Shown here: one piece after another, positions 10,030-32,000 of the stretch
Numbering within the stretch: the first letter of the stretch is position 1
Layout of the letters: each line of letters opens with the position of its first letter
The notes under the pieces: generated by a model
Told to the model about the DNA's origin: nothing
Databases searched by the model: none
What the model saw: the letters and a program-made list of their open reading frames with translations, nothing else
Made by a program: the position numbers and the translations under genes
Source of the DNA: Candidatus Saccharimonadota bacterium
GTDB lineage: Archaea > Micrarchaeota > Micrarchaeia > Micrarchaeales > Micrarchaeaceae
Assembly (NCBI GenBank): GCA_963698035.1
Contig: OY969114.1
Location: 600,001-632,000, forward strand
Reading direction: 5' to 3'
DNA: 32,000 bases

Positions 10030-10179
10030 GATTACACGTAGACTATTGCAACAGAATGCTCTTTATTCCTTCTTTTCACAGCCCTATTAATCTCTCTCAC
10101 ACACTCCCCTTTTTAAATATTCGGTCTACAATCCCTGCTCACAGTACTTAAAACCCGAATTTTATAACCTTGAGTAAAG

Positions 10180-10629: not shown

Positions 10630-12117
10630 TTATGGGACCTGCATCGCGTTCCCCGGCGTCACGGCCGGGAGGACCCCACCCGGTGGATAACCCCTAACTC
10701 TTACGTAGTAAATCGGCCCGATGCTCAATCCGGAATTGAGCTCATCTATAAAGGCTATCGACTGTGGCAGTGTCGGCAGGTCGTTAACAATTCCGATTGT
10801 TATGGAGTTCCCATAGTTGGCTAATGCCGATACAGAGCTTGGCGAGGCACTCGGCAGCATGACCGAGTAGACAGTATTGGAGCCCAAGCTGAGCCCCGCC
10901 ACCCTTACGGTGTTTGACCGGTTATTCGAGGTCTGCAGGCCGTAGGAGCTGCCATATACGTAGACCATCGCCGTGCTGTAGTTGATGTTTTGGGAGTTCG
11001 CAAGCCCTATGCCTGCAAGGCAGTAAGTACCGCAGCCTGTGCTTGAGGGTACCACGCCGTAAAAGTCGACTACGCCGGCACCGAAAGAGCTTTCCGAGTT
11101 TAAGTTTGTAATGAAAGGGCCGCCCGCGGGCGGCGTGACCGTAACCCCGTTGCTTACTTTGCAGAATGATGACGAGCAGCTGCTCCAACTTGTCGAATTG
11201 AGGGTGCTGCCCGCGAAGTTGCTGTAGAAGTTGAATACGTTTTGGCCATTGTCATACTGCGCATACGTGTTGCTCTGCAGCGGCGACTCGCCGGCATAGA
11301 GGCTATCGTACCCTATGCTATTTGGCAGGAAGTACATCGACAGGCTTGCAGATCCGCTTGGGGCTATGCTGCGGTCCATCACCACCCAGAAGATTACATT
11401 GCTAGTGGAGCTTGATGCGCAGTTTGTTTCACACCAGCTGTATAGCTCCTTTGCGCTGTCATAGAAGCGTATATTGCCCAAGTTCGGACTTTCGTATGAG
11501 GAGAATGTGTTTGGCTTGAACGTGACCATTATCTGGAGACCACCTTGTGTAGCATTTGTGGTGTTAATGTTATTAACCGAGAATGGAACGTAATAGTAAG
11601 GTCCCCCGGACAGCTTCTGCACCTCCGCTTGAAGCTGCAGAGTTCCTGTATAGATGTAGTTGCCGTTTGCCGGGCAGCTGTAGCTGTATAGCGATAAGCT
11701 CGAACCTGCGCAGTAGTTTGCCGATATTGCGAAGGAGCCGGTATACGTATTGCCTATCCTTGGAGCGAAGTTGAGCTTCGCCGTGCAGTAGACGGTCTCA
11801 CCCTCAGAAACTATGTTAGGCGTGCAGATTCCGTTGATGCTCATAGTCGAGCTTATAATCACGTTAAAGCTGCTCACGTTAACCTCTCCGGGCTGCGTGA
11901 AGGTCGCTATCAGAAAGAGCTGCGAGCCTATCCCATTCCAGGTCGCGTATACCACGTCCGAGCAGGAGAAGCCTCCAAAGAAGCTGCACTCCTGAGGCAG
12001 TATCGATGTCGATGAGGATGAGAGTATAAGCACAAGTACGACTGCGATTGTCATGATTATTATGGCGAAAGAGTAGACCGAAAGGAATTCGACAGCACTC
12101 TGGCCCTTCTGCTCCAT
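10630..12117 (-). CDS. Type IV pilin-like protein (class III signal peptide) with large DUF2341-like / ConA-like lectin C-terminal region
   Basis: The N-terminus MEQKG|QSAVEFLSVYSFAIIIMTIAVVLVLIL has a short basic leader, Gly at -1, Gln at +1, Glu at +5 and a hydrophobic helix. This is the archaeal EppA-type/DUF361-like prepilin signature. The middle segment LQIMVTFKPNTFSSYESPNLGNIRFYDSAKELYSWCE...NVIFWVVMDRSIAPSGSASLSMYF resembles DUF2341. The remainder is Ser/Asn/Gly/Tyr-rich with many N-x-S/T sequons. Confidence 0.8.
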   Translation of the reverse strand: MEQKGQSAVEFLSVYSFAIIIMTIAVVLVLILSSSSTSILPQECSFFGGFSCSDVVYATWNGIGSQLFLIATFTQPGEVNVSSFNVIISSTMSINGICTPNIVSEGETVYCTAKLNFAPRIGNTYTGSFAISANYCAGSSLSLYSYSCPANGNYIYTGTLQLQAEVQKLSGGPYYYVPFSVNNINTTNATQGGLQIMVTFKPNTFSSYESPNLGNIRFYDSAKELYSWCETNCASSSTSNVIFWVVMDRSIAPSGSASLSMYFLPNSIGYDSLYAGESPLQSNTYAQYDNGQNVFNFYSNFAGSTLNSTSWSSCSSSFCKVSNGVTVTPPAGGPFITNLNSESSFGAGVVDFYGVVPSSTGCGTYCLAGIGLANSQNINYSTAMVYVYGSSYGLQTSNNRSNTVRVAGLSLGSNTVYSVMLPSASPSSVSALANYGNSITIGIVNDLPTLPQSIAFIDELNSGLSIGPIYYVRVRGYPPGGVLPAVTPGNAMQVP

Positions 12118-16700: not shown

Positions 16701-19700
16701 CTCTCCCCAAAACACTTCATTTACAGTTTCGCCCACCGGGCAGTACCTCTACGTGAGCACGAAGAGCATACCCTACGTCTTCATATATACTGCAAAGGTC
16801 GTCAACGGGCTGAATTCCACCTATCTAACGGCCATAAACCTATCGTATTCCACACCCGCATATAACCTAAGCATAACCAAGTACCTTGGAGGCGGTGGCC
16901 CATACAACTCAAGCGCGTTGAAGAGTCTGTACGCACCCGGCTCTCCAAACTTGAAAAACTTGAATGATACGCCAACTGCGCCAAGCGGTTATTCATCGCA
17001 CTGGCCTATAGGCCTCGCTGAATCGCAGGGCATCCTCTACGTTCTTGATGATTGGTTCATCGGCGAGCCCCCGCTTGATGCGGGAGGTAATCCCGCAGCC
17101 GAAAGCATCCTAATGCTTCGGGCGTTCACTTACAATGGCACCGAAATACCTATCGATGCAGCTACCTACGACGATGTCATACCAAAGAGCTACCTCAACC
17201 TGGGTACTGGATACGTAGCGGGACAGCTCTATCCTCCGTACGGGCTGCCGATATCTGCAAACTTCTCCGTGCCGAAATCTTTAGGCAGTAACCACTACTC
17301 ATACCTAAGTTACTGTGCCTATGGATGCACATACAGCCCATTGTCAAGCTGGTCTCAGCCCGCATACAACGCGCTGCTTCCAGACTACTCATGGATTACA
17401 AATAGCTCGCCCCCGGTAGGGCCGTTTTTGGGTGCGGAGTCGCCTCCCACCCCCGGAAAGGTTGTCGCATGGACAAATCCTCTAGTGATACCCTTCGCAT
17501 CCTTCACTGCGGATTTAAACAACACCCTCTATCTCAATGCCTGGGCGTATGCATATCCTACCTCCTTTTGTACTCTCGAGACTCCAGTAACAGCCCCCCC
17601 AATATCTTCATCATGCAGCCAGTTCTACGCAGAGCTGGCAGGCATCCACTTCAACCCGCAGAATTACACTAGGATCGCGGCCAACCCGCAGATCTCATAT
17701 GCGTGCTATCTTGGCATTAATACAAGCCCCACCAACATCTTCAAACCTTCCTCCCCTTCCGGCACCACCTGCACAACCGTTGCAAACCTCAGCAGGCAGA
17801 AGCCCCCGGCCCTTGGCATCCCCGATCCGTTCTCTTATGCGGAAAGCCTTGGAAGCCCGAGCGCGTACCTATCCGGGCCGCTATCGCTAACTACACTGTA
17901 CCCAAGCTTGTATGGTGGCGCCGATCCTCCATCACAACCAACTCTGGCCATCTCCCCCACCACAATCTCCACTGGCACAAGCGTTACAATAAGTGCAACC
18001 TGCCAACCAAGCACAGATAACTGCGCAATAGACTACCCGAACTTAGGAACGCAGATAGCCATAGGCACAGGCTCCGCTACCGATACATTCACACCAGGTA
18101 CAGCAGGCTCATTCTGCTACTATTATGCCAATGATATAACTACCGGCCTAAACTCTGCAGGGCAATGCCTTGCAGTCACTTCCTCCTCAGGGCTCAGCAA
18201 TTCTTCAAACATTGTGATAGGGAACAGCATATCAATAAGTATTCCTTCGATACCAGCCGGGCTTGCTGCATCCAAACTGAAGAGCGACATATCCGGATAC
18301 ATCCTCGTCCCAATTAACTATACATATTCGCTGACCCGATCTTACTCACCAAGTCCGGATTTGCCAGCGTTCGGTGACCCTTCTTCCTGCGGCTCCATAT
18401 CGCTTCCTGCCCAATCCACCCAGAGCTTCCAGGTCCATACGGATGTACTTCAGTCCGCTTCAGAGAGCCAGCTCAACGAGAGCCTGGCGAGCGGCTTTGT
18501 GATAGGGCAGTATCAGAACAACAATAAGTACTATGAAGCGAACCTGTCTGATGCCGGTCTGATACTACCCCCGCAGATCTTCCTCAACATATTCTCGAAC
18601 AGGATATTCGGTGAAATGTACATAAACCAGAGTATGAACCCGCGCGGCCCGTCACTCGGAGGGAATGGGCCTTCATCCTTTACAGGCAGCTCGTACGGAA
18701 GCATCCTCATAGCTGCAGACCCTGTAATCCAGGGCTACCCAGACCAGATAACGCTCTACGCCGGTAGTGAAACAGCCGGGGACGCCCTATGGTTTTATGT
18801 CCTCAACATCAATGGCAACCAGGTGGCTGCCAGCCCAACCTCCAGCAGCGGCTCTGTAGCGCTGACTATCTGCGCCTCTTCTAACTCCTGCCTGCCGCCA
18901 GGATATTATAGTATAGAGGCGTACGCCATGAACCCCATCCAAACCCTCATCCCGATATTCCCGCAGCTAATCGTCCGATCGAGCGCAAGCCTTGGGGACG
19001 TTGTGATAAATGCGACCCATACATTCAACTACTCGCAGATTAACTTCGAACAGATGTATGGCGGCGGCATCGTGGCTCCTGGGTTCTCTGAAGAGGCTGC
19101 GCTGCAGCTCAACCCCCAGGCAATCGGCGCAGTATGCAGCTTCTGCACGCTCCCCTACTACTACAATCCTGCGAACCTATTTGTCGGCAACAACAGCCTC
19201 TCGCACAGCGGCCCGCTCCAGACGAATCTGGTAGCGCTCTTCAGCCAGTTCAAGGTGATGACCCATCTTGACGTCCTGGACCTAAGCATGCTGTACAACG
19301 CCAAAGTGCTCGGCTACAACCGGCTTAATTACAGCTATACAGACCAGTTCAACAACACGATAAACATGCCCATGGATGTTGATTTGGCGAACATAACTCT
19401 GATAACCTTGAACGTGTCTAGCGTGATAAATTCTAGCAATCCCAACTCCACATTCGTGAAGGTGAAGGGCATAGCCGGGTACTACCCCAGCTTCTTCAGC
19501 GTCACTCCGTCGCCCATCCCGGAGGGCAGCCCGATATACCTGTACTATGACACAAACATAAACTTCTACAACCAGAGCCTCAACCCGTCGTCGAATCCTG
19601 ACGCGTACTATACATACGCGCTGCAGTGCGCATTCGGCAGCGTGAGCGGCCCATGCGCCTTTGCCGACCCCTCCCTCATGACACTGCCACCACTCGGCCA

Positions 19701-20341: not shown

Positions 20342-21310
20342 ATGCTGCAGTTGTTTGTGCTGAGCATAGGGGCGATATACGCGCTGATACCACTTGTAAT
20401 CATAATAATACTGATAGCCGCGGCAGTGGGTCTGACCAGGGGATCAACCATCTTCGAGCTATTCGGGATAGAGGCCCTGGTGGGGATGGCAAGCGCAAAG
20501 AACATAGGAGCAGGCAAGGCTGGAACAGGCATCGGCGGGACGACTATGACGAAAATGCAAGCAAGACAGAAGTTGGCGGGGTTTGGAGCAACATCCGCTG
20601 GAAAAACGCAGAAAGTAACGGGGACTCTCGCAGCAAGTGCGGCACAGAAAGCCTCTACGAATGCAGAAGCAGCAGCCATGATAAACAAGTTAGCCAAACA
20701 GGGTAACCCAGAGGCCGTGGCAGCTGTGGCTGCGGGCGCAGCAGCTTTCGCAACTGCCTCTCAATCCCGCAAGGGTAAGGGTATAGTAAACCTCGCCGTA
20801 TCCTCTCCACCACCACCTCCTCCATTCCCCGGAGCAAAACCTCCCTCCAGATGGAACAGATCAACTAATGTATTCACCACGCGAACGCAAAGAGGGGGAA
20901 ACCCTCTTCTGACTATGCAGGTGCCCGCCCCCCTCTCTATTATGACATGGAGAACGAGGGCAGGGAGCTGGCGCACCACAAGGGCGGAAAGTCGTAGTGC
21001 TGCAGCAGCATCATGGGTCGCTAGTCAGCAACACGCTGCAACCATCGCGGCATACAGGCAGCATGCAGGTCCTGTGGCGCACCAAATGATAATGCAGGCG
21101 GCAAAGTATAAAACCAATCCTTCCCGAGTGCCTAAGCCCCTGCGCCGCTCTGCCTATCTCCCGCTGAGTAAGCCCGCTTCTAAAATGAGCTGGATATACG
21201 GTCACAGGGCGAGTGCACCAATTCCCCAGACGAGAAGGCAAATGATATGGTCATTCTATAAGGGCACAGGCGGCGCGCTGAAGCGAAAATTGAGAGAGGA
21301 AAAGGACTAG
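20342..21310 (+). CDS. Hypothetical N-terminally membrane-anchored, low-complexity basic protein
   Basis: An SD-like GGTGA lies 4 nt upstream of the ATG, 40 nt after the giant gene. It has an N-terminal TM helix (LFVLSIGAIYALIPLVIIIILIAAAVGL), then an Ala/Gly/Lys-rich segment, a PPPPPPFP tract and an Arg/Trp-rich C-terminal half. No family was recognised, and the low complexity lowers confidence. Confidence 0.5.
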   Translation: MLQLFVLSIGAIYALIPLVIIIILIAAAVGLTRGSTIFELFGIEALVGMASAKNIGAGKAGTGIGGTTMTKMQARQKLAGFGATSAGKTQKVTGTLAASAAQKASTNAEAAAMINKLAKQGNPEAVAAVAAGAAAFATASQSRKGKGIVNLAVSSPPPPPPFPGAKPPSRWNRSTNVFTTRTQRGGNPLLTMQVPAPLSIMTWRTRAGSWRTTRAESRSAAAASWVASQQHAATIAAYRQHAGPVAHQMIMQAAKYKTNPSRVPKPLRRSAYLPLSKPASKMSWIYGHRASAPIPQTRRQMIWSFYKGTGGALKRKLREEKD

Positions 21311-21318
21311 AGAGATAA

Positions 21319-22041
21319 TCAAGCAACTCTCTTCAGTATCTCCTCGCCGAGCCTTGCCCCAGCCGTTATTTCGGGCAGCACTATGCTCGAGGCCCCAGCC
21401 TTCGCGAGCTTCTGCATGTTCTCCTCCTCTATGACCCTGGATATCACGTCTATATTTGGATTTATGTCCTTAGCTGTTATCGCAATCAGGGCATTCTTCA
21501 CGTCCTCGTCATCGCACGCGATGATGCACGACGCCTTCTCGGTTCCAGCGGTCTTGAACGCCTCCTCGCTCTTCAGCTCCCCGACAACTGCGAGCATTCC
21601 CTGCCTGTAGAGCCGCGCAGCCTGCATATTATCCTGCACGATCGCCACGAACTTCATCTTCTCCTTTGCCAGTTCTTCAACAAGCACCTTCGAGAAGTTG
21701 TTGTACGGGGCGACTATTATGTGTTTATTCAGCCTCTTCACCTTTGCAAGTACGAAGTACTCAGTTATATTTATGCTGCGTATCAGCCTGATGAACCAGG
21801 TAGCAAGGAAGACCGCGAAGAGTGCGAAGACAAAAGCATCGAGAAGGCTCGAGGTCAATACAAGGGGACTGTCCACGAGCGCCGCCGGTATCAGCGCGTA
21901 GTAGACGTATAGGGATGCAAGCAGGTTCCATATGAGGGAGATGCCGAGCCCCACGCCCGCGATCGCCGTAAGCGCTACCGCGATGGCGAAGAGCACAAGC
22001 GCTATTAGAAGCACCAGGTAGTTCATGTTCTTTCTCTTCAT
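21319..22041 (-). CDS. Membrane protein with C-terminal RCK/TrkA-N domain (degenerate dinucleotide motif, no K+ filter)
   Basis: It has about 3 N-terminal hydrophobic helices followed by a TrkA-N-like domain (HIIVAPYNNFSKVLVEEL...FVAIVQDN...IIACDDEDVKNALIAITAKDINPNIDVISRV). Its ATG overlaps the upstream gene's stop (ATGA). Confidence 0.75.
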   Translation of the reverse strand: MKRKNMNYLVLLIALVLFAIAVALTAIAGVGLGISLIWNLLASLYVYYALIPAALVDSPLVLTSSLLDAFVFALFAVFLATWFIRLIRSINITEYFVLAKVKRLNKHIIVAPYNNFSKVLVEELAKEKMKFVAIVQDNMQAARLYRQGMLAVVGELKSEEAFKTAGTEKASCIIACDDEDVKNALIAITAKDINPNIDVISRVIEEENMQKLAKAGASSIVLPEITAGARLGEEILKRVA

Positions 22042-22820
22042 CTCCTCACCTTCTCCAGCAGCGCGCTGCCTATCTCAACGCCTGCGAGTATCTCCGGCAC
22101 TATGCACATCTCCGCGCCGGCGCGCTGCATCTTCGTTATGCCTGTGTCCTCATCAGCGGCCCTTGATATTATCTTCACCTTAGGGTTAAGGTGCTTTGCC
22201 GTCACTATGCCCATCAGGTTGGCCAGGTCGTCTTTCGTTGCGAAGACTATCGCCCTCGCCTTCACTATGTCCGCCTCCTTCAATATCTCCTCACTGGCGA
22301 AGTCGCCGCCTATTACCGTGTAGTTGCGGTCCCTTAGCATCTCTATTGTCACAGGGTCCCTATCTATCACTAGGAATTTCATCTTCTCCTCAGAGAGATC
22401 GTTGCAGAGCCGCTCCGCGGTCCTCGAATAGCCGCAGATTATTATGTGGTTATTCATCCTGCTCGCAGAGAGTATGCTCACCTTGGAGAGCAGCTCCGTG
22501 CCCGTTAGTATCTCTATTATTGCGGCAAGCGCGAGGCCAACCGCAACTATCTTGGCGACTCCGTCTATAACCGAAATTATTATGAGCTGGTAGAAGGCGG
22601 CGCCGAATGGCGGCGCGTTTGCCTGCAGCACAGATGCGACGCTTATCCCTACCGCATCAAAGAGCGAGCCAATTGTGTAGTATGCAGAGACATAGAGGTT
22701 GTGCGATATGTTGTAGACTATGTAGAGCGTGGCCAGGGCGAGTATCACTGCCGCTATCGCAAGATAGATGAGCGTCTTTCCCGCGATGCTCCTCCTCTCA
22801 AGCTCCGGCACATTCACCAA
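22038..22820 (-). CDS. MthK-like 2-TM channel-RCK fusion protein with non-canonical pore signature
   Basis: The architecture is TM - pore-helix-like segment - TM - RCK (HIIICGYSRTAERL...FLVIDRD...). The position aligned to the K+ filter T-V-G-Y-G reads A-V-G-I-S (22641-22655). TTG start at 22820, preceded by AGGTG. Confidence 0.75.
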   Translation of the reverse strand: MVNVPELERRSIAGKTLIYLAIAAVILALATLYIVYNISHNLYVSAYYTIGSLFDAVGISVASVLQANAPPFGAAFYQLIIISVIDGVAKIVAVGLALAAIIEILTGTELLSKVSILSASRMNNHIIICGYSRTAERLCNDLSEEKMKFLVIDRDPVTIEMLRDRNYTVIGGDFASEEILKEADIVKARAIVFATKDDLANLMGIVTAKHLNPKVKIISRAADEDTGITKMQRAGAEMCIVPEILAGVEIGSALLEKVRR

Positions 22821-22828
22821 GCGCCCAC

Positions 22829-23254
22829 CTACTTCATAAGCTCCTTGACAATCTCCCTGCTCGCGGTCTTCTGCGGCATCACTATGTAGTCGGCGCCTGC
22901 ATCCACCAGCTTCTCCCTTACGAAGTCGTCGTTGGACCTTGTCGCTATGAATATGCTTTTGTTGAGGTCCCTGGCGGTTAGCACAGCGAACAGGTTTTTC
23001 GCGTCGTTGTCCATGACTATTGCTATAGCCTTAGCGTTAGCGATGCCAGCAGATTTGAGGACCCTCGACGATGTGGCATCGGCATTTATGGTCTTGTAGC
23101 CGAGTTCCTCGCATCTCTTCGCTATGTCGGTGTTGGCCTCTATTATCACGAAGTCTACGTTGTGCTCGATGAGCATGTCCGTAATCTTCCTGCCCACGAC
23201 CCCATAGCCGCAGACTATCACATGATTCTTCGCCTCAATCCTTCTCTCAGCCAT
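22829..23254 (-). CDS. Soluble RCK/TrkA-N domain protein
   Basis: Intact Rossmann motif VIVCGYGVVGRKI, plus FVIIEAN, GDA-like INADATSSRVLKSAGIANA and IIATR-like FIATRSND. At 141 aa it has no TM segment. Confidence 0.85.
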   Translation of the reverse strand: MAERRIEAKNHVIVCGYGVVGRKITDMLIEHNVDFVIIEANTDIAKRCEELGYKTINADATSSRVLKSAGIANAKAIAIVMDNDAKNLFAVLTARDLNKSIFIATRSNDDFVREKLVDAGADYIVMPQKTASREIVKELMK

Positions 23255-23493: not shown

Positions 23494-24195
23494 ATGATGA
23501 TGCGCGAGAATACCTTCCTCATGCAGGAGATAAGGGACATAGTGATTGCAGATGCAGTACTGATACTTGCCATGACGCTCGTCCTCTGCGGGGGCATTTT
23601 CAGCATAACGAGTAACCCCTCGAGCTTCGTGCGGAGCTTCGTATATTACATCCCTATAGTCGCGGTGGCTGCTACCCTTGTCTTCGTTCTGCACGAGCTG
23701 ATGCACAAGTTCGTGGCGCAGCACTACGGTGCTATAGCGGGGTTCAAGACGAACACGATGGGCCTGATGATCACGCTGATCACAGGCGCCTGCGGCTTCC
23801 TCCTAGGAATACCCGGCGCCACCATGATATATGCACACTCGTTTGACAAGAGGCAGAACGGGCTCGTCTCGCTGGCAGGTCCGCTCACCAACTTCGCGAT
23901 CTTTGGCGCGTGCCTCGCAATCTTTTTCGTGCTCGCGCCTGCATCCACCTCATATCTTTACACGGCGCTCTCCCTCACCCTATTCATAAGCATACTGCTT
24001 GCATTCTTCAACATGCTTCCCATATTCCCGCTCGACGGGAGCAAGGTGCTCGCCTGGAACAAGCCAATCTACTTTGGCACGATTTGCATCATATTCGTGC
24101 TGATGATGCTCTTCACCCCCATCCCTATATACGTCATCATACTGATGGTGATTGTGGCTCTCTTCTTCTCGTTATTCTACAGGAGGGCGTTCTGA
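23494..24195 (+). CDS. Site-2 protease family (M50) intramembrane zinc metalloprotease, minimal form
   Basis: HExxH motif in a TM helix (LHELMHKF), a second motif FFNMLPIFPLDGSKV (NxxPxxxLDG), and multiple TM helices. No PDZ or CBS insert is visible. Confidence 0.85.
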   Translation: MMMRENTFLMQEIRDIVIADAVLILAMTLVLCGGIFSITSNPSSFVRSFVYYIPIVAVAATLVFVLHELMHKFVAQHYGAIAGFKTNTMGLMITLITGACGFLLGIPGATMIYAHSFDKRQNGLVSLAGPLTNFAIFGACLAIFFVLAPASTSYLYTALSLTLFISILLAFFNMLPIFPLDGSKVLAWNKPIYFGTICIIFVLMMLFTPIPIYVIILMVIVALFFSLFYRRAF

Positions 24196-24239: not shown

Positions 24240-25538
24240 ATGGTATTAATGGCGGACGCGATGGCCCCCGAGACTAGGACCACTATAGATGCAATGATAG
24301 AGCTCCTGAAGAGCAGAGGCAAGACGGATATCGCCCAAATATCAATGGCTCTGGACACAGATCAGGGCATAATAGAGAACTGGGCAAAGGTTCTCGAGAA
24401 GGGCAATCTTGTCAAGATAAGCTACGAAGTGGGCAAGATGTTCGTAACTCCCTACAATCTTACACCGGAGCAGGAGACCGCTGTGAAGGCCGAGATGCAA
24501 ACAAAGGCATTTTCGATAGAATCTACCGTATCATCAGAGCTGCTCTCACTTGACAATCTTTCAGAGACGCTCAAGGGCATAAAGACCTCCATATTAGCAG
24601 CCGAGAAGCTGGAATCCGATCAGATGCCGCAGATGCGCAAGGCGCTCTCGCAGATAAACTCCATATCCGAAGCTGTAGACCAGAAGCTCAGGTCAGTCGG
24701 CCAGACGGAGAAGAGGGCGAACGAGTTCTATGATGCGATAAACAAGCGCGCTGCAGAGCTCGCCATGAGGGTCTCTCAGATCGAGTCGACCGTAAACAGC
24801 AAGAGCATCGAAGATGCAAGGCACAACATTGCTCAGATCATGGGCGAAGCGGCTGATGCAGACAAACAGATTGCGCTGATGAGCAAGAACACCAGCGATT
24901 CAATAAACCAGCTCAGGACGAGTATGGAGGAGCAGATGAAACAGCTGCACCAACAGATGGATTCAAACGGGAGGGACCTCGAGGCGAAGACGAAAGAGTA
25001 TTCAAGGCTGCTTTCCGAAAGCGAGCGCGAGTTAAGGGACAGGGCGAGAGCAGCCACCTCTGTAGTCCAGGAGTCGAAGGAATTCGAGCAAGAGAAGGAG
25101 AAAACAAAAAGTAGGATTAACGAGGTAAGGGCGGAATTTAACGACGCATATGCGAAGACCAGGGAGGAGATAAGCAAGAGCAAGAGCGAACTCGATGCAA
25201 GTTCAAAGGCGCTTCTCGACCAGGTAGACTCCATAAAGAAGGGATTCGGCGAGGCGGCGATGATGGATGATGCGATAACGCGGGTAAAGGGCGAGCTTGC
25301 ATCGATAGAATCGGATATCGCCGCGCAAAGGCGGGAGATAGAGGAATTACTCACGCAGATACACAAGATCCAATCTACGGAAGTGCAGCCTGACAAGAAG
25401 AGTGCCACCATCAATAGCATCAAAGACATGGTGGACAAGGCTGCATCAAACGTCAGCGATATAAGGAACAAGGTCAAGAATGTATCGGAGGGGGCAAAGG
25501 AGATAGGCAAGAAGGAAGAGGGGCAGCAAGAGGGATGA
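24240..25538 (+). CDS. Winged-helix-like N-terminal domain plus ~350-aa coiled-coil protein (function unknown)
   Basis: The first ~70 aa (IDAMIELLKSRGKTDIAQISMALDTDQGIIENWAKVLEKGNLVKISYEVGKMFVTP) look like a wHTH. The remainder is E/K/Q/S-rich heptad-like sequence. Its stop overlaps the ATPase start (ATGA at 25535-25538). Confidence 0.7.
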   Translation: MVLMADAMAPETRTTIDAMIELLKSRGKTDIAQISMALDTDQGIIENWAKVLEKGNLVKISYEVGKMFVTPYNLTPEQETAVKAEMQTKAFSIESTVSSELLSLDNLSETLKGIKTSILAAEKLESDQMPQMRKALSQINSISEAVDQKLRSVGQTEKRANEFYDAINKRAAELAMRVSQIESTVNSKSIEDARHNIAQIMGEAADADKQIALMSKNTSDSINQLRTSMEEQMKQLHQQMDSNGRDLEAKTKEYSRLLSESERELRDRARAATSVVQESKEFEQEKEKTKSRINEVRAEFNDAYAKTREEISKSKSELDASSKALLDQVDSIKKGFGEAAMMDDAITRVKGELASIESDIAAQRREIEELLTQIHKIQSTEVQPDKKSATINSIKDMVDKAASNVSDIRNKVKNVSEGAKEIGKKEEGQQEG

Positions 25539-27049
25539 TTCTGATGGAGCAGTCAAATAGCGAAGCGGGGCACGTAATGGCAAGCTACAGCTTGAACGCC
25601 AATGGGATGCCGGTCAACATAGAGATCTTGCAGGGTATAGATTACACCCCCACCTACAGAGTGACGATACCGGGGATGGCGGCTGCCACTAAGCTGTTGC
25701 TCATGTCGCTCAGGAGCGAGCTCATTCCCATGGTCTCTGTCGACACAACCAGAATACAGGACAAGCAATACCTTGATGAGGTAAACAAAAAGTACATAAA
25801 TGCGAGCAGCCTACTCATCGATAGGTATCTTCCAGGAACGCCGCAGAGCACGAAGTCATTGCTTATTGCGTATGTGATAAACATGATGTTGGGACTCGGC
25901 GACCTAGAGGGTCCGCTCGCCGACGAAAATCTTGAGGAGATTGCGGTAAACGGCGCAGGGCACCGCATCTGGGTCTTCCACAAGGATTTTGGCTGGTGCA
26001 AGACCGACATAACGCCGCAGACCGAGGAGCAGATATACGACTATGCGGAGCAGATAGGCAGAAGAGTGGGGAGGGAGATAAACAACCTGTCACCCCTGAT
26101 GGACGCTGTCCTGCCCGATGGCTCGAGGGTCAACGCGACGCTATACCCGATATCGGAGGTAGGCGACACAATAACGATAAGGAAGTTCGCAAAGAACCCG
26201 TGGACCATGCCCGCGATGATAAAGAACCACACCCTTGACCCGTCGCTCGCAGCGCTCGTCTGGCTCTGCATACAGAACGAGATCAGCTTGCTAATATCGG
26301 GGGGCACGGCAAGCGGAAAGACTAGCATGCTCAACGCGGCCAGCATATTCTTCCCGCCGAACAGAAGGATAATATCTGTAGAGGAGACGAGGGAGCTGAC
26401 GCTGCCCGATTTCCTCCAATGGATACCCATGGTGACAAGGCAGCCTAACCCGGAGGGCAAGGGAGAGGTGACGCTATACGACCTCACGATCAATTCGCTG
26501 AGGCAGAGGCCAGACATAGTGGTGGTCGGCGAGGTAAGGGTGCAGAAGGATGCGGAGACGCTCTTCGAGTCTATACACACCGGCCACGCGGTCTACGGGA
26601 CGCTCCACGCAGACAACGCGCAGGACACCATCATAAGGCTGACAAACCCCCCGATAGCGATATCAAAGGTGATGGTCAATGCGCTAGGCGGCATTCTCGT
26701 CGCGTTCAGACACAGGATGAGAGGAATAAGGAGGATACTGGAATATGGAGAGGTGCTGAGGAGCGGGGACGTCAACGTTCTCTACAAGTGGAACATGCGT
26801 GATGACACCTTCACCCAGATAAGCGAGATGACGAGGCTGGCAGATACGCTGATCCTCTATTCCGGTTATACACTCCAGGAGATAAACGATGACATAGCCG
26901 AGAAGATTGAGGTATTGAACTGGATGGTGAAGAACGACGTGATGTCTGTCAATGATGCTGGTCTTGTAGTTGCCAACTACTACAGAAGGAAGGACAAAGT
27001 GCTCGACATAGTCAGGAACGGCGTCAAGTTCGCAAGGGATATATTTTAA
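25535..27049 (+). CDS. Type II/IV secretion-family ATPase (FlaI/ArlI / PilB / TadA / EpdL-like)
   Basis: Walker A ISGGTASGKTS, Asp box ISVEETRELTLP, Walker B RPDIVVVGEVR and His box TGHAVYGTLHA, all in the canonical order. Confidence 0.9.
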   Translation: MILMEQSNSEAGHVMASYSLNANGMPVNIEILQGIDYTPTYRVTIPGMAAATKLLLMSLRSELIPMVSVDTTRIQDKQYLDEVNKKYINASSLLIDRYLPGTPQSTKSLLIAYVINMMLGLGDLEGPLADENLEEIAVNGAGHRIWVFHKDFGWCKTDITPQTEEQIYDYAEQIGRRVGREINNLSPLMDAVLPDGSRVNATLYPISEVGDTITIRKFAKNPWTMPAMIKNHTLDPSLAALVWLCIQNEISLLISGGTASGKTSMLNAASIFFPPNRRIISVEETRELTLPDFLQWIPMVTRQPNPEGKGEVTLYDLTINSLRQRPDIVVVGEVRVQKDAETLFESIHTGHAVYGTLHADNAQDTIIRLTNPPIAISKVMVNALGGILVAFRHRMRGIRRILEYGEVLRSGDVNVLYKWNMRDDTFTQISEMTRLADTLILYSGYTLQEINDDIAEKIEVLNWMVKNDVMSVNDAGLVVANYYRRKDKVLDIVRNGVKFARDIF

Positions 27050-27070
27050 TGACTTCCCTTCGTTATAAGG

Positions 27071-27790
27071 TTGGTACGAATGGCAGACCAAGAGAAGGCG
27101 ACCCTATATTCACAGCTTGTAAAACAGATTGTGGAGATTGAGGGCAGTTCTGAGAAGCCAGAATCCGGCAGCGTTAACATATCGGAGAGTTTTTCCGGGA
27201 GCACGCAGAGGGGCAACGTAGATTATTCCAACCTCATAAACCTGATAAGCGAGGTAGAGAGAAAGGAAAGCATCTTCCAAAGACCACAGAAGTTGCAGCC
27301 ACAGATTGTCGAGCAGGTAGCGCAGCCATCAGCAGAGGAGCAGCCACAGATTGTCGAGCAGGTAGCGCAGCCATCAGCAGAGGAGCAGGTTATTGTATCT
27401 GCAGAGGCTCTCGCAATCGCAAGCGCGAAGAAGCAGGTGAAGAAGGAGCTTGCCGAGCTGACAAAGGCATTGCCGATCAAGATGCCGATGTTCGAGGAGC
27501 AGAAAATAAAGAAGGTAAATTCTGACCTTGTGCTGCCAAACCTGTCCCTGTTGGACCAGGTTTCCGAGCTGGAGAGGATAATAGAAGGATTGAGGGCTAA
27601 CATTTTCATGGGGGATGAGAGGGAGATCGTGGAGGAGGAGCTCTACGGTCTTGCCGAGCAGGTCAAAAAGGAGAAGTCTGAGCTTAAGAAGAGGAAGACG
27701 CTCCAGCAGGATGCTGCGCAGCTCTGGAGCCTGAGAGACCAGAGGCTGACGGTTGCGATAGTGTTGCTGCAGCAGAGGAGGAACGGGTGA
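27071..27790 (+). CDS. Acidic hypothetical protein with a duplicated 15-aa unit and C-terminal coiled coil
   Basis: Track start is TTG 27071, with an in-frame ATG at 27080. It contains PQIVEQVAQPSAEEQ twice in tandem and is E/Q/K-rich. It sits between the ATPase and platform genes. No family was recognised. Confidence 0.6.
   Translation: MVRMADQEKATLYSQLVKQIVEIEGSSEKPESGSVNISESFSGSTQRGNVDYSNLINLISEVERKESIFQRPQKLQPQIVEQVAQPSAEEQPQIVEQVAQPSAEEQVIVSAEALAIASAKKQVKKELAELTKALPIKMPMFEEQKIKKVNSDLVLPNLSLLDQVSELERIIEGLRANIFMGDEREIVEEELYGLAEQVKKEKSELKKRKTLQQDAAQLWSLRDQRLTVAIVLLQQRRNG
27296..27385 (+). repeat. Perfect 45-bp tandem duplication (2 copies), in frame
   Basis: The unit cagccacagattgtcgagcaggtagcgcagccatcagcagaggag occurs at 27296-27340 and again at 27341-27385 with no mismatch. 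Confidence 0.95.
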
Positions 27791-27794
27791 GCCA

Positions 27795-28895
27795 TTGCTT
27801 TTCAAGAAGAAGGGGCCGCGCATAATAACCGTAGACGGAAAGCAGATAGAGCTACAGCCCAAGAAGGGCGAAGGGTTCGGCTCGTTCTTTAGCAGGAAGC
27901 CGAAGGCGCAATCGGACAAACCCGTGCAGGGTCCAACTTCTATAAACGCATCTCCGTCGCCGCAAGTTGCTGCCATGCAACCCCAGCCGGCGCCGGCTCA
28001 GATGCAGACACCACCCCTGCAGGCCAAGCAGGGTGCGAGAAGGCCGTCAGCCGGAAAGCAGGGAATCTGGCACAGACGTATACAGAAAATAGAGATGAAG
28101 AACAGGAAGCTTGAGGCACTTCTAAAGCAGCACGGAATAAAACAGAGCGTCTACGACTTCATACAGAGGATGACTATAGCTGCCATGATAGTCGCGGTGG
28201 TCGTCGCGGCGACCCTGCTAGTCCTTCTCACGCACCTCAAGCTAAGCCCCATAGCTGCAGCCGTCATCGCAGTAGCGCTGGGCTTTGCGATATACCAGTA
28301 TTCGTTCAGGGCATTCCTCCACTTCCCGCTCAGGAAGGAGGCGAAGTCCACCAAAAACATAGAGCGCGACATACTCTTTGCCTCGAGGGACCTAATAATA
28401 TCCCTGAGGTCCGGAATGCCGCTCTACAACGCCATAGCTTCTGTGAGCAGCGGGTACGGTGACGCGAGCAGGGAGTTCACCAAGGTAACGGAAAGGGTGC
28501 AGCTCGGCATGTCGCTCGAGGATGCAATCGACCAGACGATAGCTGAGAGCAAGAGCACCTCCTTCAGGAGGCTCATGCTGCAGGCATCGGTGAGCATAAA
28601 GGCGGGGGCCGACGTTGTGGGATCCCTGCAAAGCATAATAGACCAGCTGTCCGAAGAGAGGGTGATAGCCCTGAGGAGATACGGGCAGAGGCTCAATGCG
28701 ATAGCGATGTTCTACATGCTCTTCGGCATCATACTGCCCAGCATGGGAATAGCGATCGCCACGATACTTACTACATTCATATCAATTATCACGATAAACT
28801 TTGCAGTCCTGGAAGCCGCGCTTGTTGGGCTGGTCTTCCTGCAGATAATATTCCTGCAGATGATAAGGAGCTCAAGGCCCGTATTCGCAATGTGA
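27795..28895 (+). CDS. Type IV filament platform protein, single T2SS-F domain (TadB/EpdJ-like) with Pro/Gln-rich N-terminal extension
   Basis: TTG start preceded by GGTGA. It has a ~110-aa disordered N-terminus, then TM helices and T2SS-F-like helices (RDLIISLRSGMPLYNAIASVS...VQLGMSLEDAIDQ...ASVSIKAGADVVGSLQSIIDQL), followed by C-terminal TM helices. Confidence 0.8.
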   Translation: MLFKKKGPRIITVDGKQIELQPKKGEGFGSFFSRKPKAQSDKPVQGPTSINASPSPQVAAMQPQPAPAQMQTPPLQAKQGARRPSAGKQGIWHRRIQKIEMKNRKLEALLKQHGIKQSVYDFIQRMTIAAMIVAVVVAATLLVLLTHLKLSPIAAAVIAVALGFAIYQYSFRAFLHFPLRKEAKSTKNIERDILFASRDLIISLRSGMPLYNAIASVSSGYGDASREFTKVTERVQLGMSLEDAIDQTIAESKSTSFRRLMLQASVSIKAGADVVGSLQSIIDQLSEERVIALRRYGQRLNAIAMFYMLFGIILPSMGIAIATILTTFISIITINFAVLEAALVGLVFLQIIFLQMIRSSRPVFAM

Positions 28896-28899
28896 TGCT

Positions 28900-29895
28900 A
28901 TGCAGATAAATTTCGAGAGATTGGTGTCGAGGGACCTGGCCAGGCGTCTCTCTAACGAGATGGATCTCGCCGGGATAAAGAGCAGTGTGAACAAGCTGCT
29001 CAGCATAGCGATAACCGGCGCGCTTGTCATACTAATAATAACCTCTTTCGCCCTCTCGATAATAGTAAGGGTCGAGTTCTTAGAGGCGTTCTTGATAGGG
29101 TTCGCTGCCGCAGGCTGCTACATAGCCTTCATCTACGTCTACCTCGAGTATTTAATTGACAGAAGGAAGACCGCACTGGAGGTGATACTTCCTGACTATT
29201 TCCAGATCGCATCTGCAAACTTGAGGAGCGGAATGGCGCTCGACAGGGCGCTCCTGCTCGCGGCAAGGCCGGAGTTCGGCTTCTTTTCAGACGACATGAA
29301 GGAGATGAGCAGGAGGATTTTCGGCGGCGAGACACTCGAGAATGCGTTCAGGTCGGAGAGCACAAAGTACCGCTCCTATCAGCTCACGCACGCCATAAGG
29401 ATGATACTCGAGTCGATAAGATATGGCGGAGGAATGGCAGATCTCCTAGATCAGCTCTCAAAGGACATACGCAGCCAGCAGACCGTCCAGAAGGAGGTAG
29501 CGGGCCAGCTCTTCATGTACAGCATCTTCATCGCATTTGCAGGCGTAGTAGCCGCGCCCGTGCTCTACGGCCTCACCGGCCAGATGATAACCGTGACCGA
29601 CACCGTCTGGAAGGGCATACTCGCGTCCAATCCGGGAGGCCTGCCTACAACAGGCGTCTCGTTCCTCAAACCGACCCCTCCGCAAATAACCCCCATACAG
29701 TACGAGGATTTCTCGATCATCGCGATTGCGATAATAACCGGGTTCGCCAGCCTGATAATGTCGGCAATAAACACCGGCTCGCCTGTTAAGGGAGTGAGGT
29801 ACCTACCTCTCTTCATAATTGGCAGCGTTGGGATCTATTTCGTCGTGATAAAAGTGCTGTCAGGGCTCTTCTCCGGACTGAGCGCTGGCGTATGA
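28900..29895 (+). CDS. Type IV filament platform protein, single T2SS-F domain (TadC/EpdK-like)
   Basis: T2SS-F pattern FQIASANLRSGMALDRALLLAA...IFGGETLENAF...ILESIRYGGGMADLLDQLSKDI flanked by TM helices. It starts 4 nt after the preceding gene. Confidence 0.75.
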   Translation: MQINFERLVSRDLARRLSNEMDLAGIKSSVNKLLSIAITGALVILIITSFALSIIVRVEFLEAFLIGFAAAGCYIAFIYVYLEYLIDRRKTALEVILPDYFQIASANLRSGMALDRALLLAARPEFGFFSDDMKEMSRRIFGGETLENAFRSESTKYRSYQLTHAIRMILESIRYGGGMADLLDQLSKDIRSQQTVQKEVAGQLFMYSIFIAFAGVVAAPVLYGLTGQMITVTDTVWKGILASNPGGLPTTGVSFLKPTPPQITPIQYEDFSIIAIAIITGFASLIMSAINTGSPVKGVRYLPLFIIGSVGIYFVVIKVLSGLFSGLSAGV

Positions 29896-32000
29896 TCATG
29901 TAACGATGAAGTGCAACTTGCATGTGTTGTAGACAACACTGGCGCTGGTGCAGATCACGCTGCTGCTGTAGAATAGCCCGGTGCTGCCGCTCACTATATC
30001 GGGAGTCTGATTGAACAGCCCGTTGTACGAAGAGGCTAGCGGCCAATAATCTACCGGCGTTATCCCGTTAACCGTATTGTTCTGGTAGAGCTGCTCCATC
30101 TGTCCAGTCGAAAGCGGGGCATTGTATAGTTGCACGTCTGCCATTTCACCTATGAAATTTCCATCACCGCAGTATGCTTGGCCAAGCCCTATCCCTATCC
30201 CATTAGCGGTTGAGAAGCTGTTTGTGTTTATGACGGTTTGCTGCTGACCATTAAGCTGGAAAAGGTAGTTGCCAGTTGCAGGTGTCACAGACAATGCAAC
30301 AAACATCCAACTGTTCAAATTGCTCGGTGTGACTGCAGGGGATGCCATTGTGTCTGCAGAGGTGCACCGATGGATAAACAAGTTCCCATTACTGCCTTGC
30401 GCAGCAAGACCAAATGATTGGTAACCGGTCCAGGAGAAAAGGGATTCTACATCATTTGAACCGAAGTTAAATGCTGTGGGGTCAATCCACATCGCTATTG
30501 CGAATGGATAGTTACTGCCTGAAAGGCTCGATACAGTGTTAATAATGCCATTTCCATTGAAGGAGATGCCCTGCGGCACTATCCCATTATAGAGACCTAG
30601 GGCGCCGGTCTCATTTAGCACTATCCTATTGGAGACGGCAAGCGCCCTGGATCCAAGGTAGAGGTGGCTGTAGGAGCTGTTCCCGCACTGCTGCAGGTTC
30701 GCGCAGTTGAGCACCCCCTTCACAGCGCTTGAGTTGTAGCCGTTCAGCAGGTTGTGGAATATCGGGTCCATCGTATAGCCCTGCAGGTTGTAGTATACTA
30801 CGTTTGTAGGTGTGCCGTTGATGTTGTATCCCGAATAGTCATTCGCGTTTCCGTTCAGTGGATACCAGGCAACGAGCGTAGAGTTGAATATTGGTGGGCC
30901 ATAGAGCCCACTAGTATATAGGCTCGATACCTGCGCAGGCGAGAGCGATGTGCTGTAGACTTGAACGTTTGCGATTGAACCGCTATAATAGTCCCCCGAG
31001 TCGCCCCCTATGGTGAAAACGCTATTCCCACCCAGGGTAAAACTGCCCGTACCCTCATTATTGCCATTTATATAAATGTAGGCTTTCCCCGAATTATATA
31101 CCCCAACTACCTGATACCACGTGTTTGCTGCTAAGGGTATAGTTGCGCTAAGTCTACCATGCCCGACACATCCAAAATATATGACCCCAGGACCGTCTTC
31201 TCCCGCTCCAAGCCCAGTCACGCCCGCGATATTGCAGCCACCTTCTCCGGCAATCTGTGTTATGCCGGATAGTGTAGCCAAGTTAACCCAGGCTGAAATC
31301 GTAAATTGTTGGAGTGTATTTGATATAATGACTGTGTTTGTGTTAATTTCGCTTATTCCGTTGAAGCTGGCATCCTGCCTGTTCAACAGGTTGAAAGAGA
31401 AGAGTCCGCCAGGCCCTTCCTTGGTGGTCGACTGCTGTACGTTTTGCAGGTAGTTCGGGGAGTAGTTGGATGCAAAGTAGTAGCCGTTCTGTATCGCTGT
31501 CTGCAGCGGCGTCAGGTCCAAAAGCGAGAGCGAGGCTCCATTGAGCAGCGCAATCGTCCCGTTGGGTATCACGTTCGCGGAGAGCTGGTTCGCGGTGTAG
31601 ATTAGATAGGACACAGTGACTCCGCTGGCCGGCAGCGCATTCGTCACAAGGCCTATCGCACCACAGGCCGTCAGCCCCAGGTTCGCTGCGTTAGGTGTCA
31701 CCAGTATGAAGGAATTTGCCGGCAACGTCGGCATATTGGAGCATGATGTGGGCGTCCCTCCTAGGTAAACTAGAGTGCCGTATGCGAACATGAAGGGGCT
31801 CCTACTTCCAGCTATAGCAAGAGAATTGGCTATCAGGATTGGGTAGGGATATTTAGATATGCTTTTTATCGTGCTGGGGTTGTCGCTTTCAGCGCCATAT
31901 ATGTCCTGCGTTCCGTTTATGCTCACATTCGCAACCGCCGATATTCCATAGGTAACATAGCCGTAGCTCGAGTTGAGCGTGGCGAGCCCGGTCAGCTTTG
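29896..32000 (-). CDS. Large surface protein with two LamG/ConA-like lectin domains; N-terminus lies beyond the window
   Basis: I translated 31927-32000 by hand and the frame stays open to the window edge (…KLTGLATLNSSYGYVTYGISAVAN-VSINGT…), so the track start GTG 31926 is arbitrary. There are two Laminin_G_3-like units (FTISAWVNL...WYQVVGVYNSGKAYIYINGN...GSIANVQVYSTSLSPAQVSSLY and FAIAMWIDP...WMFVALSV...LFQLNGQQ...GEMADVQLYNAPLSTGQMEQLY). The linker LVAWYPLNGNANDYSG is also typical. Confidence 0.85.
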   Translation of the reverse strand, partial: KLTGLATLNSSYGYVTYGISAVANVSINGTQDIYGAESDNPSTIKSISKYPYPILIANSLAIAGSRSPFMFAYGTLVYLGGTPTSCSNMPTLPANSFILVTPNAANLGLTACGAIGLVTNALPASGVTVSYLIYTANQLSANVIPNGTIALLNGASLSLLDLTPLQTAIQNGYYFASNYSPNYLQNVQQSTTKEGPGGLFSFNLLNRQDASFNGISEINTNTVIISNTLQQFTISAWVNLATLSGITQIAGEGGCNIAGVTGLGAGEDGPGVIYFGCVGHGRLSATIPLAANTWYQVVGVYNSGKAYIYINGNNEGTGSFTLGGNSVFTIGGDSGDYYSGSIANVQVYSTSLSPAQVSSLYTSGLYGPPIFNSTLVAWYPLNGNANDYSGYNINGTPTNVVYYNLQGYTMDPIFHNLLNGYNSSAVKGVLNCANLQQCGNSSYSHLYLGSRALAVSNRIVLNETGALGLYNGIVPQGISFNGNGIINTVSSLSGSNYPFAIAMWIDPTAFNFGSNDVESLFSWTGYQSFGLAAQGSNGNLFIHRCTSADTMASPAVTPSNLNSWMFVALSVTPATGNYLFQLNGQQQTVINTNSFSTANGIGIGLGQAYCGDGNFIGEMADVQLYNAPLSTGQMEQLYQNNTVNGITPVDYWPLASSYNGLFNQTPDIVSGSTGLFYSSSVICTSASVVYNTCKLHFIVT

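Follow-up and report, generated by a model that had tools for sequence, protein, structure and literature searches.

How do DPANN archaea recognise their hosts and hold on to them? None of their pili has been dissected so far. The 32,000-nt stretch of micrarchaeal DNA analysed here (from contig OY969114.1; hereafter the window) carries at positions 24240-29895, on the + strand, a compact locus that raises this question: it encodes a secretion ATPase, two membrane platform proteins and two proteins of unfamiliar type, and a gene for a large lectin-type surface protein converges on it from the other strand. What does such a locus build, and do the unfamiliar proteins belong to the machine? We put at about three in four the probability that it encodes the assembly core of a type IV pilus (T4P), whose filament would carry pilin-like adhesins of lectin type for attachment to a host.

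Five tightly packed open reading frames (ORFs) make up the locus, all of them on the + strand and at the positions that a sequence-only reading of the window had proposed for a five-gene operon. They are listed below with the convergent gene.

24240..25538, + strand: wHTH/coiled-coil protein, 432 aa, cytoplasmic; a winged helix-turn-helix (wHTH) domain at residues ~14-72, followed by a coiled coil of ~350 aa
25535..27049, + strand: FlaI/PilB-family secretion ATPase, 504 aa; predicted assembly motor (T2SSE)
27080..27790 (ATG start, 236 aa) or 27071..27790 (TTG start, 239 aa), + strand: acidic cytoplasmic protein specific to Micrarchaeota (hereafter the 239-aa protein)
27295..27388, + strand: 45-nt tandem duplication within the gene of the 239-aa protein, found with Tandem Repeats Finder (TRF)
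27795..28895, + strand: platform protein 1, 366 aa, one T2SSF domain
28900..29895, + strand: platform protein 2, 331 aa, one T2SSF domain
29896..32000, - strand: double-LamG surface protein (Laminin_G_3), at least 676 aa; frame open at the window edge

The first two genes overlap by 4 nt, a gap of 21 nt follows (30 nt with the ATG start), and the remaining two gaps are 4 nt each; 0 nt separate the stop of the LamG ORF from that of platform protein 2. A scan with bacterial promoter and terminator models gave counts at the level of shuffled sequence, these models not being applicable to archaea.

The ATPase matches T2SSE at 1.4e-32 (Pfam), and all four nucleotide-binding boxes attributed to it earlier were located: Walker A (GGTASGKT at 256), the Asp box (ISVEETRE at 280), Walker B (RQRPDIVVVGEVR at 323) and the His box (TGHAVYGTLH at 349). 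The best solved structure in the PDB is afGspE (2OAP, 220 bits), followed by FlaI (192) and CpaF (166). The protein scores under every NCBIfam equivalog cut-off: its best match is the FlaI/ArlI model NF058587 (250.6 bits vs a cut-off of 550), while TIGR03819 (TadA) gives 167 bits vs 373 and the BasE model NF053672 gives 127.8 bits vs 1000. These curated cut-offs exclude it as an equivalog of ArlI, TadA or BasE. A protein search found hundreds of close homologues with 63-89% identity; in the best 120 matches listed, those with a named source come from Micrarchaeia, Micrarchaeota or 'Marsarchaeota', and the JGI label on homologues is 'flagellar protein FlaI'. An identical copy is encoded on a contig of 776,853 bp. 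Overall, identity ranges from 59 to 89% across Micrarchaeota and from 43 to 49% in other DPANN, which places the window in a DPANN archaeon of the Micrarchaeota.

The position of the ATPase among its relatives was explored with a neighbour-joining tree (302 columns, 200 bootstraps) of 21 DPANN ATPases and a set of PDB-derived or plasmid-borne references, namely four TadA/CpaF sequences, afGspE, FlaI, three haloarchaeal PilB, GspE, TrbB and VirB11. The DPANN ATPases are monophyletic in this tree (100% bootstrap) and group with the archaeal references (afGspE, FlaI and haloarchaeal PilB) at 80%; a grouping of Tad with DPANN receives 0%. The method is crude, the references are few and hold no EpdL, Methanococcus or Thermococcus sequence, and long-branch effects are possible. 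A specific affinity to Tad is not supported, given the 0% bootstrap with TadA/CpaF and the TIGR03819 score below its cut-off. Thus, the term 'Tad-style', used for the locus in the sequence-only reading, is apt for its gene architecture and does not extend to the affinity of the ATPase. Many of the ATPases from DPANN other than Micrarchaeota (L060-L083) have lysine-rich, apparently disordered N-terminal extensions of 40-220 residues, which the Micrarchaeota proteins lack.

As had been claimed, both genes at the end of the operon encode platform proteins with a single T2SSF domain each (platform 1: 3.3e-16, residues 197-320; platform 2: 9e-16, residues 105-223; Pfam); transmembrane (TM) segments are predicted as well. 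Platform 1 also carries a basic, P/Q-rich cytoplasmic N-tail (isoelectric point, pI, 10.4). The two proteins are paralogues (25% identity, E 1e-5), and neither has a significant match in the PDB by sequence. When three haloarchaeal PilC proteins were scored with family hidden Markov models (HMMs), the platform 1 model gave 37/30/29 bits on the N-half and 13/6/15 on the C-half, and the platform 2 model gave 65/49/47 bits on the C-half and 9/21/11 on the N-half. Platform 1 aligns to positions 4-251 of the 484 positions of the UpsF profile. Gene 1 corresponds to the N-half and gene 2 to the C-half, and the pair is therefore colinear with a normal two-domain platform, as the gene-fission scenario of Denise et al. 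(2019) predicts. On Tad proteins, the platform 2 model scores 43/42/37 bits for TadC vs 35/33/26 for TadB; the affinity of platform 1 to TadB is ambiguous.

The split is a conserved property of the locus. A genome scan with the ATPase alignment, using one genome per GTDB species, returned 80 loci. Fifty-five are of Micrarchaeota type (ATPase identity 50-76%), including that of the cultivated Ca. Micrarchaeum sp. A_DKE (L017, 64%), and 25 come from Aenigmat-, Woese-, Nano- and Nanohaloarchaeota (43-49%). ORFs were called in all loci and searched with the window proteins and family HMMs; for the platform count, at least 3.5 kb of downstream DNA was needed. In 64 of the 68 loci that qualified (41/45 in Micrarchaeota, 23/23 in other DPANN), a pair of separate platform genes comes after the ATPase. 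The split is therefore ancestral, and the alternative of a single platform gene broken by a frameshift, set out beforehand, is ruled out. Four contigs from metagenome-assembled genomes labelled 'Methanosarcinales archaeon' (L066, L070, L073 and L075) carry a DPANN-type ATPase and two-platform locus with 43-49% identity; their ATPases nest among Woesearchaeota-type sequences in the tree, and mis-binning or lateral transfer is likely.

To which of the known filament systems does the locus belong? Many Clade 2 euryarchaeal loci also carry two tadC-like genes (Makarova 2016); therefore, the split alone is not diagnostic of a family and is not a hallmark of Epd and Tad systems alone, as it had been taken to be. 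The features of an archaeal T4P are present in the window and its relatives: a four-box ATPase, an adjoining T2SSF platform, and class III substrates, the last read directly from the sequences and not with FlaFind. We provisionally place the locus among the archaeal T4P, in the Epd-like class (Clade 1) known from the literature, on the strength of published arCOG work on the orthologues. Clade 1 is characterised by DUF2341 pilin-like adhesins and by short pilin genes that are usually encoded elsewhere (Makarova 2016). Consistent with Clade 1 are the pilin N-termini with Q at +1 and E at +5, the presence of a DUF2341 pilin-like protein and the arCOGs to which the orthologues have been assigned.

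The nearest described counterpart in this class is the Epd pilus of Methanococcus maripaludis (EpdJ/EpdK/EpdL, with pilins processed by EppA), which likewise has an ATPase and two single-domain platform genes. Q+1/E+5 pilin-like proteins and large DUF2341 pilin-like proteins are shared between the two systems, and a peptidase of the EppA/PulO arCOG and FleN are found, encoded elsewhere, in the relative A_DKE. The differences are these: the window has no major pilin of ~70 aa; the wHTH/coiled-coil and 239-aa proteins are not among Makarova's Clade 1 components; and the adhesin candidates bear LamG domains and form a convergent four-gene cassette in relatives. The bacterial Tad/Flp system (TadA/CpaF, TadB, TadC) has the same order of ATPase, platform and platform with one T2SSF domain per gene, platform 2 here resembles TadC more than TadB, and the large pilin-like accessory proteins could be regarded as analogues of TadE/F/G. 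However, no TadZ/CpaE, secretin (RcpA/CpaC), CpaB or Flp pilin was found among the window ORFs scanned. A likeness to Clade 2 euryarchaeal T4P (Haloferax PilB3/PilC3-type; afGspE) shows in the platform HMMs, which give haloarchaeal PilC higher scores than Tad proteins, whereas in the haloarchaeal references used the platform is a single two-domain gene. A K-G↓Q..E(F/Y)L pattern (the arrow marks the predicted cleavage site) typifies the pilin N-termini here, which would set them apart from the 'SPVIG' type of haloarchaeal PilA.

The convergent neighbour was confirmed as a double-LamG protein (Laminin_G_3 at 1.1e-28, in two stretches; Pfam). Its ORF is open at base 32000, so that 676 aa is a minimum and the N-terminus lies beyond the window. 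From its first visible residue, the fragment aligns to residue 162 of the 852-aa orthologue in locus L006 (42% identity over 714 columns), and thus it is the first member of a cassette, with ~160 N-terminal residues past the edge. This convergent cassette, of which the window holds only the truncated first gene, encodes four pilin-like proteins in relatives, three of them with LamG. The N-termini in relatives are as follows.

Cassette gene next to the platform: LamG protein of 850-1130 aa; N-termini '..KRG↓ILLTLLTLVIFILMLGE' or 'SSKG↓QLMTL', pattern K-G↓(I/Q)L.TL
Second LamG protein: N-terminus 'KGF(V/I)FTLDA(I/V)FAL'
Protein of ~190 aa: N-terminus 'RA↓QFWSFD(I/V)IFA'
Third LamG protein: N-terminus 'K(S/G)↓QIA(I/L)EF'

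The link between the locus and lectin proteins, noted before in the window, is conserved in relatives. Judging from these N-termini, the flanking LamG proteins are probably pilin-like subunits, which suggests that they form a lectin-bearing filament tip. The earlier proposal that the filament 'displays or secretes' adhesins is narrowed accordingly: the pilin-like N-termini of the relatives' LamG proteins favour display over secretion. Tip or priming complexes are known in other systems, namely the minor pilins of type IVa pili with PilY1, GspH-I-J-K of the type II secretion system, and CofB of type IVb pili with its lectin domain. Here, too, the motor genes have beside them a set of about four genes for pilin-like proteins, of which some are very long and carry domains of adhesin or lectin type; the analogy is one of function and not of demonstrated sequence homology. 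By this analogy, we infer a tip location and a priming role for the LamG cassette.

A further candidate substrate of the machinery is encoded in the window 12 kb from the operon.

10630..12117, - strand: pilin-like DUF2341 protein, 495 aa, with a class III signal peptide

As claimed for a 'Q+1 pilin' with a lectin-like domain, its N-terminus (MEQKG↓QSAVEFLSVYSFAIIIM) shows the K-G↓Q cleavage pattern, E at +5 and a hydrophobic helix, and DUF2341 is present (4.3e-5; 24.3 bits vs a cut-off of 23.4). It is the sole class III N-terminus in six-frame scans of the window, and it resembles the small pilins after the platform genes in other DPANN ('KGQAAMEFLMTYGW'). In DPANN other than Micrarchaeota, small ORFs of 143-209 aa starting 'K(K/G)GQAAMEFLMTYGWAILVV' directly follow the platform genes; the small pilins directly 3' of the platform genes read 'KGQAAMEFL'. 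Q+1 pilin-like proteins share K at -2, Q at +1 and E at +5, but just ahead of the predicted cleavage site any of A, G, S, I or M can stand, a context looser than the usual [KR]-[GA] class III rule. Examples are the following.

L011, 480-962: Q+1 pilin-like protein
L030, 4801-5754: Q+1 pilin-like protein
L034, 7104-7673: Q+1 pilin-like protein
L044, 8492-11152: Q+1 pilin-like protein
L046, 3296-5095: Q+1 pilin-like protein

Loci of this type have been catalogued before in Micrarchaeota genomes, and the one in the window is one more of them. Specialists will find the locus itself no surprise, as reports of T4P genes and of LamG expansions in DPANN go back to 2017. Golyshina et al. (2017; PMC5498576) listed, for Mia14 (Ca. 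Mancarchaeum acidiphilum), MIA14_0170 as a CpaF-family ATPase, 0172 and 0173 both as TadC, and 0176 as a secreted T4P component. They assigned the locus to the Methanococci/Thermococci (Epd) group, stated that key T4P components are common to many Micrarchaea, and linked expanded LamG proteins to the T4P loci of Mia14. This genome has one FlaK-like peptidase (Mia14_0570) and no archaellum genes, and pili-like connections between ARMAN cells and Thermoplasmatales are cited in the same paper (PMC5498576). Genes MIA14_0170-0177 of Mia14 and Micr_00440-00449 of A_DKE have the gene order of the window, and the A_DKE ATPase is 64% identical to the window's. The A_DKE genes, with annotation and transcripts per million (TPM) taken from Supplementary Data S5 of Krause et al. 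(2022; PMC8975820), are given in order.

Micr_00440: M50 protease, arCOG00614
Micr_00441: coiled-coil protein, no arCOG
Micr_00442: ATPase, arCOG01819 'CpaF family', E 4.7e-99
Micr_00443: protein of ~210 aa, wholly unannotated
Micr_00444: platform 1 orthologue, arCOG01812
Micr_00445: platform 2 orthologue, arCOG01811
Micr_00446, 00447 and 00449: LamG proteins, convergent

The five operon genes of A_DKE have, in order, TPM values of 5.0, 2.5, 1.5, 2.0 and 1.6 in co-culture, and the LamG genes 0.7-0.9; the housekeeping genes SMC (1.4) and SufB (0.5) are in the same range (PMC8975820). Elsewhere in this genome lie an EppA/PulO-type peptidase (Micr_00634, arCOG02300), a FleN ATPase (Micr_00290), and pilins of 68 aa and of 159 aa (Micr_00375, TPM 2.1) at other sites (PMC8975820). 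Both relatives, Mia14 with Mia14_0570 and A_DKE with Micr_00634, possess an A24-family prepilin peptidase. The window differs from both Mia14 and A_DKE in coming from another species and in the private 45-nt duplication of its 239-aa protein gene. The two papers list the genes and do not analyse the coiled-coil and ~210-aa proteins or the LamG N-termini (PMC5498576, PMC8975820). Thus, the combination of components that the sequence-only reading called uncharacterised had been listed for Mia14 in 2017, while the two accessory proteins are indeed unannotated, having no Pfam, NCBIfam or arCOG assignment.

The first of these, the 432-aa protein, is acidic and has no TM segment. Its first ~70 residues are conserved in the family alignment; Pfam gives only coiled-coil noise for the protein itself, and weak wHTH matches recur in 36 family members (MarR 14, DeoR 10, TrmB 8). 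An AlphaFold2 (AF2) model built from a 17-sequence alignment predicts a winged helix at the N-terminus (H15-26, H31-38, H42-54, E58-63, E66-71), with a predicted local distance difference test (pLDDT) score of ~85, followed by helices of 105, 42, 147 and 48 residues and no ligand-binding domain. Foldseek superposes the N-domain on ArsR/SmtB/MarR wHTH domains with a root-mean-square deviation of 1.0-1.6 Å (CzrA over 59 columns, probability 1.0), and the rod resembles the coiled coils of chemoreceptors (MCP), Rad50 and MukB. AF2 topology and Foldseek superposition therefore agree with the wHTH-coiled coil description given earlier. With the N-domain HMM, the gene that immediately precedes the ATPase gives a match in 65 of 72 loci (47/49 Micrarchaeota, 18/23 other DPANN). 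A phmmer search with the window's own 65-residue wHTH segment found 167 clusters among 1.84 billion representative proteins, almost all the matches lying at the N-terminus of proteins of ~400-440 aa. Two Woesearchaeota-type genomes (L075:5208-7070 and L076:9674-11464) encode the wHTH domain, with no coiled coil, as an in-frame N-terminal part of the ATPase itself; these fusions look alike and so probably represent a single event. Conserved position, translational coupling, the fusion and the top transcript level in the A_DKE operon together make it more likely that the protein serves the ATPase as a scaffold or regulatory subunit than that it is a plain transcription factor.

The second accessory protein is entered in the database (P0121) with the ATG start at 27080 and 236 aa. 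It was described earlier as an acidic repeat protein. It is acidic (pI 5.1), has no TM segments, and its gene does contain a perfect 45-nt tandem repeat (2.1 copies, 100% matches) that encodes PQIVEQVAQPSAEEQ twice; the repeat, however, lies in a variable, P/Q-rich linker that is predicted to be disordered and is not conserved in relatives. Short N-terminal helices precede this linker, and a conserved C-terminal region of ~90 residues with the motif LVLPxLSLxDQxxELExIxEG follows it. AF2 predicts a three-helix bundle with pLDDT >90 for residues 150-236, for which Foldseek returned only generic three-helix bundles (E >=3; none with E <1), and Pfam gave no consistent family for 32 members. The family HMM finds the protein in the same slot of ~48 Micrarchaeota loci and at no other place in the loci scanned; there are 25 homologues in 5.8 billion proteins, all 'hypothetical', and other DPANN have no gene in this slot. 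In deep-branching Micrarchaeota (L050-L056), the slot holds a gene for 206-1026 aa to which the family HMM is blind and whose N-terminal motif looks similar; judged by sequence, this gene is either non-homologous or very divergent. An electrostatic contact of the acidic accessory proteins with the basic N-tail of platform 1 is possible, given their predicted charges.

The gene content, the domains, their conservation and the pilin-like N-termini of the relatives' proteins are observed. From them we infer how a filament would be assembled, where on it the lectins would sit, how a host would be bound and what the accessory proteins would do. A class III signal peptidase, encoded elsewhere, would first cleave the prepilins. 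The hexameric FlaI/PilB-type ATPase would drive a platform made of two separate single-domain proteins, the N-half and the C-half, and this platform would pull the cleaved prepilins out of the membrane and polymerise them into a filament. The wHTH/coiled-coil protein, translationally coupled to the ATPase, would most likely be bound to it as a scaffolding or regulatory subunit, and in Micrarchaeota alone the 239-aa protein would join as a further accessory factor of the cytoplasm. The convergent cassette would supply proteins that prime and cap the filament, which would thus bear carbohydrate-binding adhesins and attach to a wall-less, glycan-coated Thermoplasmatales host. The 495-aa pilin-like protein is a candidate substrate of this machinery. 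A bolder version, which we entertain with more doubt than belief, would make the wHTH/coiled-coil protein an integral motor subunit across DPANN that docks on the ATPase N-terminus, as suggested by the two in-frame fusions, like an ArlX/ArlCDE-type scaffold, with the Micrarchaeota three-helix-bundle factor added and the four-gene lectin cassette serving as a glycan-reading tip that fixes the choice of host.

Several other explanations deserve consideration. The two accessory proteins might stand outside the machine, the wHTH protein being a plain DNA-binding regulator of the operon and the 239-aa protein an unrelated passenger. The winged helix is canonical, its nearest structures are ArsR/MarR repressors, and archaeal T4P loci contain many unstudied transcription regulators (Makarova 2016). 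However, the wHTH domain is net negative on average (-1.5, range -4 to +1), it is followed by a long coiled coil and by no ligand-binding domain, its gene overlaps the ATPase start with its stop, its place upstream of the ATPase is retained from one DPANN phylum to the next, two species have it joined in frame to the ATPase, and its gene is the most transcribed one of the operon in A_DKE; we therefore think this view rather unlikely. The locus might also serve surface display resembling a bindosome or a type II secretion system, in which a short pseudopilus or a membrane-anchored array, and no long pilus, presents LamG lectins that catch host glycans or sugars, as Sulfolobus BasEF does with sugar-binding proteins that have class III signals. 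The substrates encoded beside the Micrarchaeota operon are indeed large carbohydrate-binding proteins with pilin-like N-termini and not small pilins, the window has no small major pilin, the LamG genes of A_DKE are transcribed below the motor genes, and the authors of the A_DKE study state that the organism cannot make its own activated sugars (Krause 2022, PMC8975820). Yet the ATPase falls far below the BasE cut-off, the machinery of other DPANN directly precedes pilins of 143-209 aa, which are typical filament subunits, the 159-aa pilin of A_DKE is transcribed, and pili-like connections have been reported for ARMAN cells. Such a display system is distinctly improbable in our estimate.

A filament used for uptake or exchange of DNA between symbiont and host, and not for adhesion, finds some encouragement in the literature: a route for DNA through T4P was put forward as speculation by Golyshina et al. 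(2017; PMC5498576), who also documented lateral gene transfer between Mia14 and Cuniculiplasma, and many pili could join in DNA uptake (Denise 2019). We regard it as very improbable, since the window ORFs scanned yielded no gene for competence (ComEC, DprA or the like), the proteins that accompany the machinery are adhesins of lectin type, and there is no retraction ATPase, archaea lacking PilT (Makarova 2016). An archaellum, or a remnant of one, could be suspected from the FlaI model as the best NCBIfam match of the ATPase and from the 'flagellar' label of its homologues. It deserves practically no credence, in keeping with the earlier exclusion of an archaellum: the score on that model is less than half its cut-off, two single-domain genes stand in place of the two-domain ArlJ, the window ORFs scanned gave no match to archaellin or ArlF/G/H/CDE families, and Mia14 lacks archaellum genes (PMC5498576).

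The reading of the locus as a T4P core for a lectin-bearing attachment filament has to be held against a number of observations that count against it. The N-terminus of the window's LamG protein is outside the stretch, and so its pilin-like start is taken from orthologues, whose N-termini were read by eye and not with a trained predictor; the Pfam class III signal model PF04021 made no detection on the pilin N-termini. Of 38 Micrarchaeota loci, only 21 have a convergent gene for a LamG or pilin-like protein at most 1 kb from platform 2, and the loci of other DPANN have none. Six-frame scans of the 32-kb window found no small (~70 aa) major pilin and no prepilin peptidase. Four Micrarchaeota loci (L035, L036, L038 and L040) have the coiled-coil gene and the ATPase (522-524 aa, ~60% identity; near 10001-11500 in L035 and L038), followed by unrelated genes. 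The evidence for the roles of the accessory proteins consists of position, one fusion lineage and predicted structure. Pili go unmentioned in the main text of Krause et al. (2022; PMC8975820), and a literature search found no experiment on any member of the family.

A protease gene immediately precedes the operon in the window, as its orthologue does in A_DKE.

23494..24195, + strand: small M50 (site-2 protease-like) membrane metalloprotease with HELMH and LDG motifs (Pfam 4.1e-9)

In ~15 Micrarchaeota loci the M50 gene directly precedes the operon in the same orientation, and 7 more have it a few kb off in the opposite one. Its vicinity to the operon is conserved; it may be a mere syntenic neighbour, and its membership of the system is uncertain. 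Further upstream, the window contains a very large surface protein and other genes.

13729-20301, + strand: surface protein of 2190 aa with a Sec-type signal peptide, a C-terminal TM anchor and 52 N-glycosylation sequons; no Pfam family
20342-21310, + strand: membrane protein of 322 aa following the 2190-aa protein; no Pfam family
21319-23254, - strand: three consecutive TrkA_N genes (240, 260 and 141 aa), two with N-terminal membrane segments
5123-5815, - strand: peptidase C39-like protein of 230 aa (DUF3335, 2.1e-24)
5836-5933, - strand: 98-nt tRNA, 44 bits (Rfam)
10179-10251, - strand: normal tRNA-Thr(GGT)

The pair of 2190-aa and 322-aa proteins is conserved upstream of the pilus operon in A_DKE (L017) and in L007. 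The larger protein was considered as the surface-layer protein of Micrarchaeota, and this was rejected: SLP_Mh is Micr_00292, of 101 kDa. The TrkA_N trio sits between the gene of the 2190-aa protein and the pilus operon, and it is also present on an identical Logan contig (L001). No ABC exporter adjoins the C39-like peptidase among the ORFs scanned. The 98-nt tRNA was missed by ARAGORN and probably contains an intron, which is common in archaea.

The locus type is kept from Micrarchaeota to Woese-, Aenigm-, Nano- and Nanohaloarchaeota and is transcribed in one cultivated Micrarchaeum. What is new here is a DPANN-wide partner of the ATPase that is occasionally fused to it, an accessory protein specific to Micrarchaeota, and a cassette of pilin-like LamG proteins; no description of a wHTH/coiled-coil ATPase partner, of the 239-aa family or of pilin-like LamG N-termini was found in the literature. 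The wHTH/coiled-coil and 239-aa proteins are candidates for new motor-associated components, and the pilin-like LamG cassette is a candidate determinant of host specificity.

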